From the NCBI RefSeq assembly GCF_013122565.1, contig NZ_CP053258.1: a stretch of DNA of 64,000 bases; one strand, given 5' to 3'. This document shows, in pieces, positions 2-5,151 of this stretch; the first letter of the stretch is position 1, and the number at the start of each line of letters is the position of its first letter. The translations under genes and the position numbers were made by a program. The DNA comes from Escherichia coli (GTDB lineage Bacteria; Pseudomonadota; Gammaproteobacteria; Enterobacterales; Enterobacteriaceae). The notes beneath the pieces are model-generated. The model searched no databases. It was given only the letters and a program-made list of their open reading frames with translations, and was not told where the DNA came from.

Positions 2-2449
2 TATGAAGCCCGAGTTCCAGTGAGCAATTCCTTTGCGCCTAACATCACTTTTTCGGTGCTGTATACCCGTAACGGTCAGTACAGTTTTCAGAACGCCGGG
101 ATCAAAGTTGCCGTTCCCCAGCTGGATATCCGGGTGAAAACGGACAAAACCCATTACCAGCCTGGTGAACTGGTCAATGTCGAATTAACCTCGTCACTGA
201 AAGGTAAACCTGTTTCTGCGCAGCTAACGGTTGGCGTGGTCGATGAAATGATCTACGCGTTGCAACCGGAAATCGCGCCGAATATCGGCAAATTTTTCTT
301 TCCGCTGGGGCGTAACAATGTGCGTACCAGCTCCAGTCTGTCGTTTATCAGCTACGACCAGGCGCTCTCCAGCGAGCCGGTTGCGCCTGGCGCGACTAAC
401 CGCAGCGAGCGGCGAGTAAAAATGCTTGAACGTCCACGGCGTGAAGAGGTGGATACCGCGGCATGGATGCCGTCACTCACAACCGATAAACAAGGCAAAG
501 CGTATTTCACGTTCCTGATGCCTGATTCGTTAACTCGCTGGCGTATCACCGCGCGTGGGATGAACGGCGACGGGCTGGTCGGGCAGGGGCGTGCTTATCT
601 GCGTTCGGAAAAAAATCTCTACATGAAGTGGAGTATGCCAACGGTGTATCGCATGGGCGACAAACCGGCAGCAGGACTGTTTATCTTCAGTCAGCGGGAT
701 AACGAACCGGTGGCGCTGGTGACTAAATTTGCAGGCGCTGAGATGCGCCAGACGCTGACGCTGCACAAAGGGGCGAATTATATTTCGCTGACGCAGAATA
801 TTCAGCAATCTGGCTTGTTAAGTGCAGAACTGCAACAAAATGGGCAAGTGCAGGACAGCATTAGCACAAAACTGTCTTTTGTGGATAACAGCTGGCCCGT
901 TGAACAGCTGAAAAATGTCATGCTCGGCGGTGGCGAGAACGCGCTGATGTTGCCCGAGCAGGCGAGCAATATCCGGCTACAAAGTAGTGAAACGCCGCAG
1001 GAGATTTTCCGCAACAATCTTGATGCGTTAGTCGATGAACCGTGGGGTGGGGTAATCAACACCGGTAGCCGTCTGATCCCGCTCAGTCTCGCCTGGCGTT
1101 CGCTTGCCGATCATCAAAGTGCCGCCGCTAACGACATTCGTCAGATGATTCAGGATAACCGTCTGCGGCTGATGCAACTGGCGGGGCCCGGAGCGCGCTT
1201 TACCTGGTGGGGTGAAGATGGCAATGGTGACGCCTTCCTTACGGCATGGGCATGGTACGCCGACTGGCAGGCCAGCCAGGCGCTCGGCGTAACGCAACAA
1301 CCGGAATACTGGCAGCATATGCTCGACAGTTATGCCGAGCAGGCGGATAACATGCCGTTATTGCATCGGGCGCTGGTGCTGGCGTGGGCACAGGAGATGA
1401 ATCTGCCGTGCAAAACGTTGTTGAAAGGGTTGGATGAAGCTATCGCCCGGCGCGGAACTAAAAATGAAGATTTCTCTGAGGAAGACACCCGCGATATCAA
1501 TGACAGCCTGATCCTCGATACACCGGAATCTCCACTGGCAGATGCGGTGGCAAACGTCTTAACCATGACGTTGCTGAAAAAAGCGCAGTTGAAGTCCACG
1601 GTGATGCCACAGGTTCAGCAATATGCGTGGGATAAAGCGGCAAACAGCAATCAGCCGCTGGCGCACACGGTTGTGCTGCTTAATAGCGGTGGCGACGCTA
1701 CCCAGGCGGCCGCTATTTTAAGTGGTTTGACCGCTGAGCAATCCACTATTGAACGCGCGCTGGCCATGAACTGGCTGGCGAAATATATGGCGACAATGCC
1801 TCCGGTTGTTTTGCCTGCGCCTGCGGGCGCATGGGCCAAACATAAGTTAACTGGAGGGGGCGAATACTGGCGTTGGGTTGGTCAGGGCGTGCCGGACATT
1901 CTCTCTTTTAGTGACGAATTATCGCCGCAAAATGTGCAGGTCCGCTGGCGTGAACCGGCAAAAACGGCTCAACAAAGTAACATTCCGGTGACCGTTGAAC
2001 GCCAGTTGTATCGGCTTATCCCCGGTGAAGAAGAGATGAGCTTTACTCTGCAGCCGGTGACCAGTAATGAGATTGACAGCGATGCGCTGTATCTCGATGA
2101 AATCACGCTTACCAGCGAGCAGGATGCAGTTCTGCGCTACGGTCAGGTGGAAGTCCCGCTCCCGCCGGGAGCCGACGTTGAGCGCACAACATGGGGCATT
2201 TCGGTCAATAAACCCAACGCCGCGAAACAGCAGGGGCAATTGCTGGAAAAAGCGCGAAATGAAATAGGCGAACTGGCCTATATGGTGCCGGTGAAAGAAC
2301 TAACGGGAACGGTCACTTTCCGCCATTTGCTGCGCTTCTCGCAAAAAGGGCAATTCGTTCTGCCTCCTGCTCGTTATGTGCGTTCCTATGCACCTGCACA
2401 GCAAAGTGTTGCGGCAGGGAGTGAATGGACCGGGATGCAGGTGAAATAA
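2..2449 (+). CDS. yfaS: alpha-2-macroglobulin family protein (YfaS/MagD-like), C-terminal ~809 aa; 5' end is upstream of the window
   Basis: ORF open from window edge (frame of 20..2449); followed by yfaQ and yfaP in the conserved operon order; degenerate thioester-like GGGEN motif near nt 926-940. Confidence 0.8.
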
Positions 2450-4099
2450 GTGAACTGGCGCAGAATCGTCTGGCTATTGGCGTTGGTTACTCAGCCAACG
2501 CTTGCGGAGGAGACGCCGTTACAACTGGCGCTGCGGGGCGCGCAGCACGATCAACTGTATCGGCTGTCGTCATCAGGCGTGACCAAAGTCTCGGCATTAC
2601 CTGACACGCTCACCACGCCGTTAGGGAGTTTGTGGAAACTGTATGTTTACGCCTGGCTGGAGGATACCCATCAACCGGAGCAGCCCTACCAGTGTCGCGG
2701 AAACTCCCCGGAAGAGGTTTATTGTTGTCAGGCTGGGGAGAGCATAACGCGCGATACCGCGCTGGTACGTTCCTGTGGGCTCTATTTTGCGCCGCAGCGG
2801 TTGCATATTGGCGCAGATGTGTGGGGGCAATACTGGCAACAGCGTCAGGCACCTGCGTGGTTAGCGTCTCTTACTACGCTGAAGCCAGAAACCTCGGTAA
2901 CGGTTAAATCGCTGCTTGATTCATTAGCGACGTTACCTGCGCAAAACAAAGCTCAGGAAGTCTTACTGGATGTGGTGCTGGACGAGGCGAAAATCGGTGT
3001 CGCATCCATGCTCGGTAGTCGGGTACGGGTGAAAACCTGGAGCTGGTTTGCCGATGATAAACAGGAAATCCGTCAGGGTGGTTTTGCTGGCTGGTTAACC
3101 GATGGTACACCGCTGTGGGTTACTGGCAGTGGCACCAGCAAAACGGTACTAACCCGTTATGCGACGGTGCTTAATCGGGTTTTGCCAGTGCCGACGCAGG
3201 TTGCCAGTGGGCAATGTGTAGAGGTGGAGCTGTTTGCCCGCTATCCGCTGAAGAAAATCACAGCGGAAAAGAGTACGACGGCAGTAAAACCCGGCGTACT
3301 TAATGGGCGCTATCGTGTGACATTTGCCAATGGTAACCACATTACGTTTGTCAGCCACGGTGAGACGACCTTACTGAGCGAAAAGGGCAAACTGAAATTG
3401 CAGTCGCATCTCGATCGTGAAGAGTATGTTGCCAGAGTTCTGGATCGCGAGGCGAAAAGTACGCCACCTGAGGCAGCGAAAGCCATGACCGTGGCGATAC
3501 GCACTTTTTTACAGCAAAACGCCAATCGGGAAGGCGATTGCCTGACCATCCCTGACAGCAGCGCCACGCAGCGTGTTTCGGCTTCGCCAGCGACCACGGG
3601 GGCGCGAACGATGACCGCCTGGACGCAGGATCTCATCTATGCGGGCGATCCGGTTCATTATCACGGCAGTCGCGCTAGCGAAGGGACGCTTTCCTGGCGG
3701 CAAGCCACGGCCCAGGCGGGGCAGGGAGAGCGTTACGACCAGATACTCGCGTTTGCTTATCCCGACAACAGCCTTAGCCGCTGGGGAGCGCCACGCTCAA
3801 CCTGCCAGTTATTACCCAAAGCGAAAGCCTGGCTGGCGAAAAAAATGCCGCAGTGGCGGCGTATATTACAAGGCGAGACAGGGTACAACGAACCAGACGT
3901 GTTTGCGGTCTGTCGTTTAGTCTCAGGTTTCCCCTATACCGATCGGCAGCAGAAACGGCTGTTTATTCGTAACTTCTTTACGCTTCAGGATCGGCTGGAT
4001 TTAACCCATGAGTATCTGCACCTGGCCTTTGATGGTTATCCCACCGGGCTTGATGAGAACTATATCGAAACGCTGACCCGACAATTATTAATGGACTAA
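2450..4099 (+). CDS. yfaQ: uncharacterized protein of the yfaA-T-S-Q-P (mag-like) operon, 549 aa
   Basis: 549-aa ORF, GTG start overlapping yfaS stop, N-terminal signal-like segment; size and position match yfaQ. Confidence 0.8.
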   Translation: MNWRRIVWLLALVTQPTLAEETPLQLALRGAQHDQLYRLSSSGVTKVSALPDTLTTPLGSLWKLYVYAWLEDTHQPEQPYQCRGNSPEEVYCCQAGESITRDTALVRSCGLYFAPQRLHIGADVWGQYWQQRQAPAWLASLTTLKPETSVTVKSLLDSLATLPAQNKAQEVLLDVVLDEAKIGVASMLGSRVRVKTWSWFADDKQEIRQGGFAGWLTDGTPLWVTGSGTSKTVLTRYATVLNRVLPVPTQVASGQCVEVELFARYPLKKITAEKSTTAVKPGVLNGRYRVTFANGNHITFVSHGETTLLSEKGKLKLQSHLDREEYVARVLDREAKSTPPEAAKAMTVAIRTFLQQNANREGDCLTIPDSSATQRVSASPATTGARTMTAWTQDLIYAGDPVHYHGSRASEGTLSWRQATAQAGQGERYDQILAFAYPDNSLSRWGAPRSTCQLLPKAKAWLAKKMPQWRRILQGETGYNEPDVFAVCRLVSGFPYTDRQQKRLFIRNFFTLQDRLDLTHEYLHLAFDGYPTGLDENYIETLTRQLLMD

Positions 4100-4103
4100 T
4101 GCT

Positions 4104-4880
4104 ATGCGAAAGATTTTTCTTCCGTTGTTACTGGTGGCGCTTTCGCCTGTCGCTCACAGTGAAGGTGTGCAGGAAGTCGAGATTGATGCACCGCTCTCTG
4201 GCTGGCATCCGGCAGAGGGCGAAGATGCCAGTTTTTCACAATCGATCAATTACCCGGCGTCGTCCGTCAACATGGCAGATGATCAAAATATCTCAGCGCA
4301 GATCCGCGGCAAAATAAAAAATTATGCTGCGGCGGGTAAGGTTCAGCAGGGCCGGCTGGTGATCAACGGTGCCAGTATGCCGCAGAGAATTGAATCCGAT
4401 GGTTCATTTGCACGCCCTTATATTTTCACTGAAGGCAGCAACAGCGTGCAGGTCATCAGCCCGGATGGGCAAAGCCGACAAAAAATGCAGTTTTACTCAA
4501 CGCCGGGTACAGGAACGATTCGTGCACGTTTACGGCTGGTTCTCTCGTGGGATACGGACAATACCGATCTCGATCTCCATGTTGTCACGCCCGATGGCGA
4601 ACACGCCTGGTACGGTAACACCGTGCTGAAAAACAGTGGTGCACTGGATATGGATGTCACGACGGGGTACGGACCCGAGATTTTCGCCATGCCAGCACCA
4701 GTTCACGGGCGCTATCAGGTGTATATCAACTACTATGGTGGGCGCAGCGAAACGGAATTAACCACCGCCCAACTGACGCTGATCACCGATGAAGGATCGG
4801 TCAATGAGAAACAGGAAACATTTATTGTACCGATGCGTAATGCTGGCGAGCTGACGCTGGTGAAAAGTTTTGACTGGTGA
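4104..4880 (+). CDS. yfaP: uncharacterized exported protein of the yfaS operon, 258 aa
   Basis: 258-aa ORF with N-terminal signal peptide (MRKIFLPLLLVALSPVAHS), 4 nt after yfaQ. Confidence 0.8.
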   Translation: MRKIFLPLLLVALSPVAHSEGVQEVEIDAPLSGWHPAEGEDASFSQSINYPASSVNMADDQNISAQIRGKIKNYAAAGKVQQGRLVINGASMPQRIESDGSFARPYIFTEGSNSVQVISPDGQSRQKMQFYSTPGTGTIRARLRLVLSWDTDNTDLDLHVVTPDGEHAWYGNTVLKNSGALDMDVTTGYGPEIFAMPAPVHGRYQVYINYYGGRSETELTTAQLTLITDEGSVNEKQETFIVPMRNAGELTLVKSFDW

Positions 4881-4932
4881 TCCATCCCTTCACACAACCT
4901 GGCGCTCTCTTTTTTCAGATAAGACTGCTGGG

Positions 4933-4978
4933 CGATCTGCCGACGCCAGGATATAACCATTAACAAGCGTCGGCAGAT
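4933..4978 (+). terminator. 12-bp perfect inverted repeat (atctgccgacgc ... gcgtcggcagat) downstream of yfaP, candidate terminator hairpin
   Basis: inverted repeat read directly; weak T-run after it. Confidence 0.4.
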
Positions 4979-5151
4979 TGGTCATTTCTTATTCGTACTG
5001 AGAACTGTCCATTTACTCTGGCTTTCCTGGTTAAGGCAATGGTTTCCAAGCGATACGCATTATTGCAATGGTGACAGAACATTGCGGTAACACGCTTTTA
5101 CCGCTACCTTAACCACACTCCATCGGTCACCTGAGGCGGAGCTTCGCCCCT

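Follow-up and report, generated by a model that had tools for sequence, protein, structure and literature searches.

The degenerate thioester site of the type II alpha-2-macroglobulin YfaS from Escherichia coli

The window analysed here, a stretch of 64,000 nucleotides of Escherichia coli DNA, begins within the yfaS gene. We conclude with good confidence that YfaS is a type II, MagD-like alpha-2-macroglobulin (A2M) of full architecture, that its thioester site is dead and has the form G-G-V-I-N, that the upstream GGGEN motif is unrelated to this site, and that trapping by YfaS is presumably non-covalent. As read from the sequence, the Cys, Glu and Gln residues of the thioester site are all replaced. 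The thioester-less type II status of YfaS is already published; the finding itself is ordinary, and its location is corrected. In annotation, the dead thioester site belongs at G-G-V-I-N (positions 1046–1060) instead of GGGEN.

Architecture and operon of YfaS

The C-terminal part of yfaS, 815 codons and the stop codon, is located at positions 2–2449 on the + strand, according to the open reading frame, its translation, Pfam, RefSeq and Foldseek. In the numbering of the E. coli PT62 annotation, where the protein has 1504 aa, residue 1 of this fragment is at about 690; the N-terminal half of yfaS, and with it any signal peptide, is outside the window. At the 98.7%-identical PT62 locus, RefSeq lists an 'alpha-2-macroglobulin family protein' and, after it, yfaQ and yfaP. 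Three domains are detected with Pfam: A2M_BRD, the macroglobulin/bait-region domain (PF07703, i-E 6.7e-10), at fragment residues 3–87 (positions 8–262, + strand); the A2M macroglobulin domain (PF00207, i-E 3.7e-12) at residues 152–234 (455–703, +); and the C-terminal macroglobulin domain bMG10 (PF17973, i-E 5.8e-06) at residues 690–798 (2069–2395, +). The tandem MG domains of the TEP superfamily are thus present in the fragment, and MG2 and other MG domains are present in the full-length relatives of YfaS. The original prediction had identified the C-terminal part of a YfaS-type A2M, and the Pfam domains and the RefSeq annotation bear this out. A minus-strand open reading frame of 86 aa (802–1062) overlaps the thioester site; it lies inside the well-supported coding region, has no support of its own and was rejected.

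The AlphaFold model of the fragment has a pLDDT of 85.6 and a pTM of 0.78. Residues 235–328 (positions 704–985, +) form an all-beta, CUB-like sandwich with a pLDDT of about 90, and this domain is aligned by hhalign with the ECAM residues directly ahead of the thioester-type domain (TED). The TED homologue, residues 332–595 (995–1786, +), is modelled with high pLDDT as an alpha/alpha toroid of 12 helices. It matches the ECAM TED in the profile and hhalign comparisons, and its structural matches are ECAM, Sa-A2M and TEPs. Beta structure resumes from residue 611, past the TED helices. According to AlphaFold and Foldseek, YfaS therefore contains a CUB-like domain with an inserted alpha/alpha-toroid TED. 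The top Foldseek matches are native ECAM (5a42, E 6e-30) and Salmonella A2M (4u48), and further matches are CD109, A2ML1, C5 and TEP1. ECAM and Sa-A2M are the best structural matches, with E values of about 1e-29 to 1e-30 at an identity of about 15%. A single-sequence phmmer search of the 815-aa fragment against the PDB gave no match and did not reach ECAM, and a family profile was needed to link YfaS with the ECAM chains of the PDB. No NCBIfam model matches YfaS, YfaQ or YfaT, and the sole match of YfaP is spurious.

Residues 104–142 (positions 311–427, +) are predicted to be flexible, with pLDDT values below 50 at residues 104–123 and 125–142. This disordered segment is located between the BRD and A2M domains, as expected of a bait. 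It contains T-N-R-S-E-R-R (positions 395–415). The MagD bait used in experiments, A-N-R-S-E-R-G (MagD residues 847–853; PMC5764988), matches this sequence in the shared core N-R-S-E-R. From the pLDDT, the domain position and the match to the MagD bait, the segment is a candidate bait region of YfaS. All modules of an A2M are retained in YfaS: the macroglobulin domains, a predicted flexible bait, the CUB-like sandwich, the TED with its 12 helices and, at the C-terminus, MG10.

The genes downstream of yfaS are yfaQ (DUF2300, the MagE equivalent; 2450–4099, +), yfaP (YfaP_C/DUF2135, the MagF equivalent; 4104–4880, +) and rcsC. The two operon partners were assigned from the open reading frames, RefSeq and synteny, and yfaQ is kept in all of the related loci with flanks. 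In the PT62 genome, yfaA and yfaT are located upstream of yfaS. The operon order is yfaA-yfaT-yfaS-yfaQ-yfaP, corresponding to DUF2138, MagC/DUF1175, A2M, DUF2300 and YfaP, and this five-gene synteny is common to 80 related loci. A phmmer search with the CUB/TED region found the type II (MagD/YfaS-like) clade only, with 150 representatives. The operon, the clade membership and the absence of CxEQ indicate that YfaS is a type II bacterial A2M. Bacterial A2Ms are said to have been first divided into two classes by Budd et al. in 2004. The type I proteins ECAM/YfhM and Sa-A2M (5a42, 4ziq, 4rtd, 4u48) share the multi-domain fold with YfaS. They have an active C-L-E-Q thioester, covalent trapping and a lipoprotein anchor, whereas the corresponding column of YfaS is GVIN. 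The type I gene yfhM adjoins pbpC elsewhere in the genome, whereas yfaS has no pbpC neighbour.

Position of the thioester site

The degenerate thioester segment comprises 14 residues encoded at positions 1040–1081 (+), as identified with BLASTP, MAFFT, hmmsearch and hhalign. It pairs with the family consensus P-Y-G-C-V-E-Q-T-A-S-R-L-I-P, and residue for residue with P-Y-G-C1187-L-E-Q1190-T-A-S-G-L-F-P of ECAM. Its first part, P-W-G-G-V-I-N-T (1040–1063), is the YfaS counterpart of the ECAM P-Y-G-C1187-L-E-Q1190-T. The equivalents of Cys-x-Glu-Gln are G350-V351-I352-N353 (1049–1060, +; codons GGG GTA ATC AAC), and the substitutions at this column are Cys to Gly, Glu to Ile and Gln to Asn. The G-G-V-I-N residues at 1046–1060 correspond to residues 1038–1042 in the 1504-aa PT62 numbering. 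The thioester column is placed at GVIN by four independent alignments: by the BLASTP HSP against ECAM, by the 41-sequence MAFFT alignment of the family, by hmmsearch of the family profile against the ECAM chain 4rtd_A (domain i-E 3.3e-12) and by hhalign against E. coli ECAM/YfhM (probability 98.9%, E 1.5e-17).

Thioester motifs sit in the loop before the first TED helix that follows the pre-TED helix. In the AlphaFold model, where G350 and GGGEN were placed by secondary-structure position, G350 is in the loop just ahead of helix 351–367, which is the first helix past the pre-TED helix. No C-x-E-Q is present anywhere in the 815-residue fragment, and the single Cys is residue 470 (context NLPCKTLL). 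With GVIN at the aligned column and no CxEQ in the fragment, a Cys-Gln thioester is not possible in YfaS, as had been stated.

The original prediction had, however, assigned the thioester position to GGGEN. The 14-residue peptide containing this motif is real and is encoded at positions 920–961 (+) in the yfaS frame. GGGEN itself (926–940, +; residues 309–313) belongs to the CUB-like domain and forms the turn of a beta-hairpin, with strand 299–308, turn 309–310 and strand 311–314 in the model. It is very improbable that GGGEN is a degenerate remnant of G-C-G-E-Q in which Cys is changed to Gly, Gln to Asn, and Glu is retained. The pentapeptide does exist and, at about 66% of the protein length, has a roughly comparable relative place, and the strict pattern G.GE[NQ] is present in only 2.3% of shuffles of the YfaS fragment; the looser pattern G-[small]-x-E-[QN], effectively allowed by the earlier claim, is found in about 10%. 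However, every alignment puts the thioester column at GVIN, 41 residues downstream of GGGEN and outside the reported interval 905–965. In the hhalign comparison, GGGEN is opposite Q1139-P-G-E1142 of ECAM, about 45 residues ahead of C1187, and in the model the hairpin is outside the TED. The motif also varies within Escherichia, with GGGDN, AGGDN and SGGDN in other clusters, according to a word-indexed homologue search that returned almost only Escherichia fragments and was used just for this variability. In remoter relatives and other genera the position is occupied by unrelated residues, whereas P-x-G-x-x-x-x-T-x-S-R-L-I-P, further downstream, is conserved throughout the family. GGGEN is most plausibly a chance look-alike of the thioester motif in a variable loop. 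The Cys to Gly and Gln to Asn substitutions had been named correctly by coincidence only, and Glu, supposed to be kept, is replaced by Ile at GVIN. Alignment with ECAM had been proposed as a check for an intact CxEQ elsewhere; the site is indeed elsewhere than GGGEN, yet no intact CxEQ is there.

Loss of the thioester in the type II clade

In the type II clade, CxEQ is kept in 61 representatives and absent in about 23. Most relatives of the same operon type have it intact, including all of the Betaproteobacteria sampled and several Pseudomonas species. Thioester-bearing relatives in yfa/mag-type operons (Paucimonas lemoignei WP_165973712.1, Pseudomonas citronellolis, Ralstonia, Paraburkholderia and Massilia) are members of one family with YfaS (38–50% identity), and their operons show its five-gene synteny. 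They have C-[VAT]-E-Q where YfaS has G-V-I-N, and on this sequence they presumably form the thioester. In most Pseudomonas, Cys alone is lost, and the Cys-less proteins sampled there have G-V-E-Q with Glu and Gln kept, whereas in the Enterobacterales all three reactive residues are lost. The thioester-less type II subclass to which YfaS had been assigned holds as type II membership and not as one clade defined by the loss, as many members keep CxEQ. The absence of CxEQ, which is the definition of type II in the literature, fails for the clade as a whole.

According to the neighbour-joining tree, the loss in the Enterobacterales is separate from those in Pseudomonas. At least five changes are placed on this tree: in the Enterobacterales, in three Pseudomonas sub-lineages and in one metagenomic lineage. 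C-V-E-Q and G-V-E-Q differ by a single TGC to GGC change. As most same-operon relatives keep CxEQ, most Pseudomonas have lost Cys alone and the Enterobacterales all three residues, the thioester-less state is derived. The type II A2Ms were probably thioester proteins ancestrally, and the loss was probably reached independently several times, stepwise from C-V-E-Q through G-V-E-Q to G-V-I-N. The literature gives only hints of this repeated loss. If it is true, the clade is a natural series in which the part played by the thioester in the function of bacterial A2Ms could be studied, and conclusions from MagD need not hold for the thioester-bearing majority of the family. The comparative value is modest: proteins with CxEQ intact, without Cys and with all three residues lost are found in one operon type, and these could be used to test why some periplasmic A2Ms do without covalent capture.

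Complement C5 and Drosophila Mcr are TEP superfamily members without the Cys-Gln thioester in which the TED is kept as a structural module. These eukaryotic proteins act in other functional contexts, and their loss of the thioester occurred independently. They share the fold with YfaS, and the structural matches include C5 chains.

An unlikely explanation of the triple substitution is gene death: YfaS in Escherichia would be a decaying, functionless relic, and the mechanism would not have changed. In K-12 MG1655, yfaS is annotated as a pseudogene, which indicates that it is dispensable in the laboratory, and at least one genome (H20) has a partial yfaS match only. None of the three reactive residues is left, and to reach the Ile codon from the ancestral Glu codon, or the Asn codon from the ancestral Gln codon, takes two or more nucleotide changes. 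However, the yfaS frame is open across all 815 codons in the window, and of 5426 complete E. coli genomes 5377 contain the locus, for the most part with the annotation of an intact A2M family protein. The scaffold around the thioester site and the entire TED fold are conserved. YfaS and its E. albertii counterpart are 88% identical. The operon is fully syntenic in E. albertii, Citrobacter youngae and Serratia oryzae, where the site likewise reads G-G-[VA]-[IV]-N, so that the thioester-less form has persisted across a long divergence, to about 50% protein identity.

Possible function of YfaS

Pseudomonas aeruginosa MagD (PA4489) has the same operon type as YfaS and, like YfaS, no thioester Cys. 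The identity of YfaS to Pseudomonas proteins of this operon type is about 50% over the C-terminal 800 residues, a value from other Pseudomonas species standing in for P. aeruginosa MagD. The Pseudomonas operons can have an extra upstream YfaP-like gene, presumably magA, which E. coli does not have. MagD is the sole family member with biochemistry: it is found in a complex with MagA, MagB and MagF, and it traps non-covalently following bait cleavage (PMC5764988). It is also unresponsive to methylamine (PMC3735191). By analogy with MagD, the non-covalent mechanism that had been proposed for YfaS is to be expected (PMC3735191, PMC5764988). Literature searches found no experiment on E. coli YfaS itself, and the search on YfaS and macroglobulin returned nothing relevant on the thioester.

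On the model of the MagD experiments, YfaS would be active as a periplasmic protein complexed with its partners YfaA, YfaT, YfaQ and YfaP. Once the bait was cut near T-N-R-S-E-R-R, YfaS would change its conformation, and the changed conformation would hold the attacking enzyme non-covalently.

A different role is possible, though we hold it only tentatively: rather than being mainly a protease trap, YfaS may join YfaT and the other partners in an envelope complex for the protection or monitoring of peptidoglycan, a role for which the thioester would have become unnecessary. Such a complex might, for example, neutralise peptidoglycan-degrading effectors, with YfaT, a MagC, being NlpC/P60-like. 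In P. aeruginosa, MagD gives specific protection against VgrG3 and Tae1, type VI effectors that target peptidoglycan, and the authors of this recent work question whether its true function is to trap proteases (bioRxiv 10.1101/2024.10.26.620397). The YfaT family is the Pfam family 'MagC', with a faint NLPC_P60 match, and the five-gene synteny is strictly conserved. On the other hand, MagD retains TEV protease in vitro once its bait is cut (PMC5764988), and the protection was seen in P. aeruginosa. Trapping and protection are also compatible, because Tae1 is an amidase/peptidase-type enzyme. In the family alignment, the bait-flanking residues are nearly invariant across the family, unusually conserved in a manner consistent with the envelope role, whereas broad-spectrum A2Ms have hypervariable baits. 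These near-invariant flanks may point to a specific partner of YfaS.

The thioester-site equivalent of YfaS

The C-terminal part of yfaS is encoded on the plus strand at window 2–2449 as a single open frame of 815 codons with a TAA stop. The frame is open at the 5' end of the window, i.e. the gene begins outside it. Of the 5426 complete E. coli genomes, 5425 match the window over its first 6 kb (top identity 98.7%); the matched loci are annotated as 'alpha-2-macroglobulin family protein', with yfaQ, yfaP and rcsC next downstream. In E. coli PT62, the yfaS gene has 1504 codons, with yfaA (DUF2138) and yfaT (DUF1175) upstream. According to this gene length and layout, residue 1 of the fragment corresponds to approximately residue 690 of the whole protein. 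The Pfam search of the fragment detected A2M_BRD (residues 3–87), A2M (152–234) and bMG10 (690–798), all on the plus strand, and no domain within 235–690, the expected place of the CUB-like and thioester-domain (CUB/TED) module.

The original prediction placed a degenerate G-C-G-E-Q thioester motif at GGGEN. Translation confirmed that the 14-residue peptide with GGGEN is encoded in yfaS (window 920–961, plus strand; GGGEN at 926–940, residues 309–313). The alignments, however, place the site elsewhere. The reference was ECAM (YfhM) of K-12, the sole CxEQ of which is at residue 1187. BLASTP gave a weak HSP (E 0.033), in which ECAM P-Y-G-C1187-L-E-Q1190-T is located opposite YfaS P347-W-G-G350-V-I-N353-T. 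By MAFFT of the fragment and 40 full-length representatives, the G350–N353 segment falls on the most conserved stretch of the family, Y-P-Y-G-C-V-E-Q-T-A-S-R-L-I-P. The full HMMER search of 1.84 billion representatives with the CUB/TED query detected only 150 proteins, all of the YfaS-like clade. The family profile matched the ECAM chains 4rtd, 5a42 and 4ziq in the PDB (overall approximately E 1e-31; i-E 3.3e-12 for the domain spanning the thioester segment), and profile 'YPygcveqtaSrLip' was paired with ECAM 'YPYGCLEQTASGLFP' at maximal posterior probability. The same residue pairing was obtained by hhalign with match columns set by the YfaS row (probability 98.9%, E 1.5e-17), and the GGGEN-bearing peptide was opposite ECAM L1138-Q-P-G-E-(gap)-T-W-A-I-P-A-D, about 45 residues upstream of the thioester. 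The BLASTP, MAFFT, PDB profile and hhalign pairings thus put G350, I352 and N353 in the places of Cys, Glu and Gln. This G-V-I-N is encoded at window 1049–1060 (plus strand; GGG GTA ATC AAC).

The AlphaFold2 model of the fragment was built with the family alignment (mean pLDDT 85.6, pTM 0.78). GGGEN is predicted to be a β-hairpin turn (strands 299–308 and 311–314) inside the β-sandwich 235–328. The predicted helix 332–345, loop E-P-W-G-G (346–350) and helix 351–367 would form the geometry where thioester motifs sit, and twelve helices within 332–595 form the predicted α/α toroid. The top Foldseek matches in the PDB are native ECAM (5a42, E 6e-30) and Salmonella A2M (4u48, E 4e-29), followed by CD109, A2ML1, C5 and TEP1.

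The pattern G.GE[NQ] occurred in 2.3% of residue shuffles of the fragment, and the looser G-[small]-x-E-[QN] in approximately 10%. Other Escherichia clusters have GGGDN, AGGDN or SGGDN at the GGGEN position, and the residues of other genera are unrelated; the conserved feature of this locality is the following L-x-L-P-A-D strand. GGGEN as a thioester relic was rejected as a look-alike, variable even in Escherichia. The fragment has only one Cys (residue 470, NLPCKTLL), and CxEQ was not found anywhere in its 815 codons. Thus, no Cys-Gln thioester is possible, and the interpretation as a thioester-less type II A2M stands, without the relic motif.

Budd et al. reportedly described in 2004 a second E. 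coli A2M that lacks the thioester and is encoded in an operon whose genes were uncharacterised. This protein is restated in later papers (PMC3328433, PMC3735191, PMC5764988), and papers after Neves et al. define type II as thioester-less (PMC5764988; bioRxiv 10.1101/2024.10.26.620397). Thus, the thioester-less YfaS is already known in substance; the relocation of the site, and the loss in several steps and on several occasions described below, are small refinements.

Loss of the thioester among relatives

The motif census covers 50%-identity representatives spanning the site, which are not a random species sample. C-x-E-Q is present in 61 (CVEQ 50, CIEQ 5, CAEQ 4, CTEQ 2), including proteins P0007, P0015, P0028 (Paucimonas lemoignei) and P0092 in yfa/mag-type operons. 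Cys is lost in about 23. Of these, 8 belong to the E. coli type (GVIN 6, GVIS 1, SVIQ 1), and about 15 have GVEQ, SVEQ, TVEQ, GVEL, GVEH, DVEH or a similar sequence. The genome scan, with one genome per species, gave 80 loci, and the order YfaA-YfaT-A2M-YfaQ-YfaP was found at every locus with sufficient flank. Enterobacterales have GGVVN (E. albertii), GGVIN (Serratia oryzae) and GGAIN (Citrobacter youngae), and all Betaproteobacteria have C-[VAT]-E-Q. The approximately 55 Pseudomonas loci mostly have GGVEQ, and CVEQ is retained in P. citronellolis, P. alcaligenes, sp. ML96, P. turukhanskensis and sp. GV071. At the Cys column, Gly is mostly encoded by GGC or GGT, which a single substitution separates from the Cys codons TGC or TGT. 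In Enterobacterales, at least two substitutions lie between the Ile and Asn codons and those for Glu and Gln.

The neighbour-joining tree, distance-based only, used 793 columns with the thioester site left out and the most distant member as root; Pseudomonas species other than P. aeruginosa represent the genus in the tree and scan, MagD being absent. Cys is reconstructed at the root, and five changes are required. The Enterobacterales clade is found in 153 of 200 bootstraps, and two pairings in all 200: P. citronellolis (Cys) with the P. nitroreducens group (Gly), and a Rhodocyclaceae protein (Cys) with P0039 (Gly). Within Pseudomonas, G-to-C reversion or gene transfer may alternatively account for the pattern. 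The census, tree and codons together indicate that the thioester-less state is derived and polyphyletic, and furthest advanced in Enterobacterales.

Most Cys-less Pseudomonas proteins (loci L013–L064) still hold Glu and Gln (G-G-V-E-Q), and the CVEQ species branch among them in the neighbour-joining tree. This persistence might reflect repeated losses of recent date, reversibility or a different role.

Predicted bait region and likely mode of action

Residues 104–142 are predicted to be disordered by AlphaFold2. T-N-R-S-E-R-R in this region (window 395–415) matches the MagD bait A-N-R-S-E-R-G, which Zouhir et al. swapped for a TEV site (PMC5764988). Methylamine is without effect on MagD (PMC3735191); its bait is cleaved, and the protease is then stably retained non-covalently (PMC5764988). 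MagD complexes with MagA, MagB and MagF, and its stability depends on MagB (PMC5764988). MagD is protective against peptidoglycan-targeting type VI effectors (bioRxiv 10.1101/2024.10.26.620397). YfaS is about 50% identical to Pseudomonas proteins of the same operon type. The literature search found no experiments on YfaS itself; homology and synteny make it most likely that YfaS works like MagD, and it would do so jointly with YfaA, YfaT, YfaQ and YfaP.

Just past the predicted bait (window 410–457, residues 137–152), R-x-x-K-x-L-E-R-P-R-R-[DE]-x-x-D-T is near-invariant family-wide (R137, K140, R144, R146, R147 and D151 in the family alignment A1), whereas broad-spectrum A2Ms have hypervariable baits. 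The conserved residues may serve a dedicated processing protease or binding partner.

Variation of the locus

The identity of 98.7% is the ceiling over the first 6 kb among all 5,426 complete E. coli genomes, with short stretches up to 99.3%; the source strain has no close representative among them. In the yfaP–rcsC gap (window 4881–5151), rcsC directly follows yfaP. K-12 MG1655 has the six-gene atoSCDAEB cluster at this position (L009:2044–9294); the window's strain, as well as PT62 and others, has no ato operon there. The K-12 MG1655 yfaS is the annotated pseudogene b4500 (L009:11799–16403), whereas the window frame is open throughout and an intact A2M family protein is annotated in most complete genomes. 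The PT62 yfaS (L001:6935–11449) has a GTG RefSeq start and the N-terminus V-G-T-G-L-A-N-A-D-D..., with no signal-peptide-like sequence. The K-12 pseudogene spans 30 codons more, and the true start of the PT62 gene may lie upstream of the annotated one.

E. coli has a single YfaP copy, giving a five-gene operon. At betaproteobacterial loci, the YfaP-type gene is tandemly duplicated downstream of A2M, and some Pseudomonas loci have a second YfaP-like gene, presumably the magF paralogue magA, on the upstream side of the DUF2138 gene (duplicates at L005:14143–15710, L006:9863–11427, L029:662–1441, L046:3708–4424 and L061:3703–4491). For the CVEQ-bearing P0034 (GCA_020718785.1, L007:2132–6808), all four operon partners are missing from the flanks of about 2 kb upstream and 8 kb downstream.
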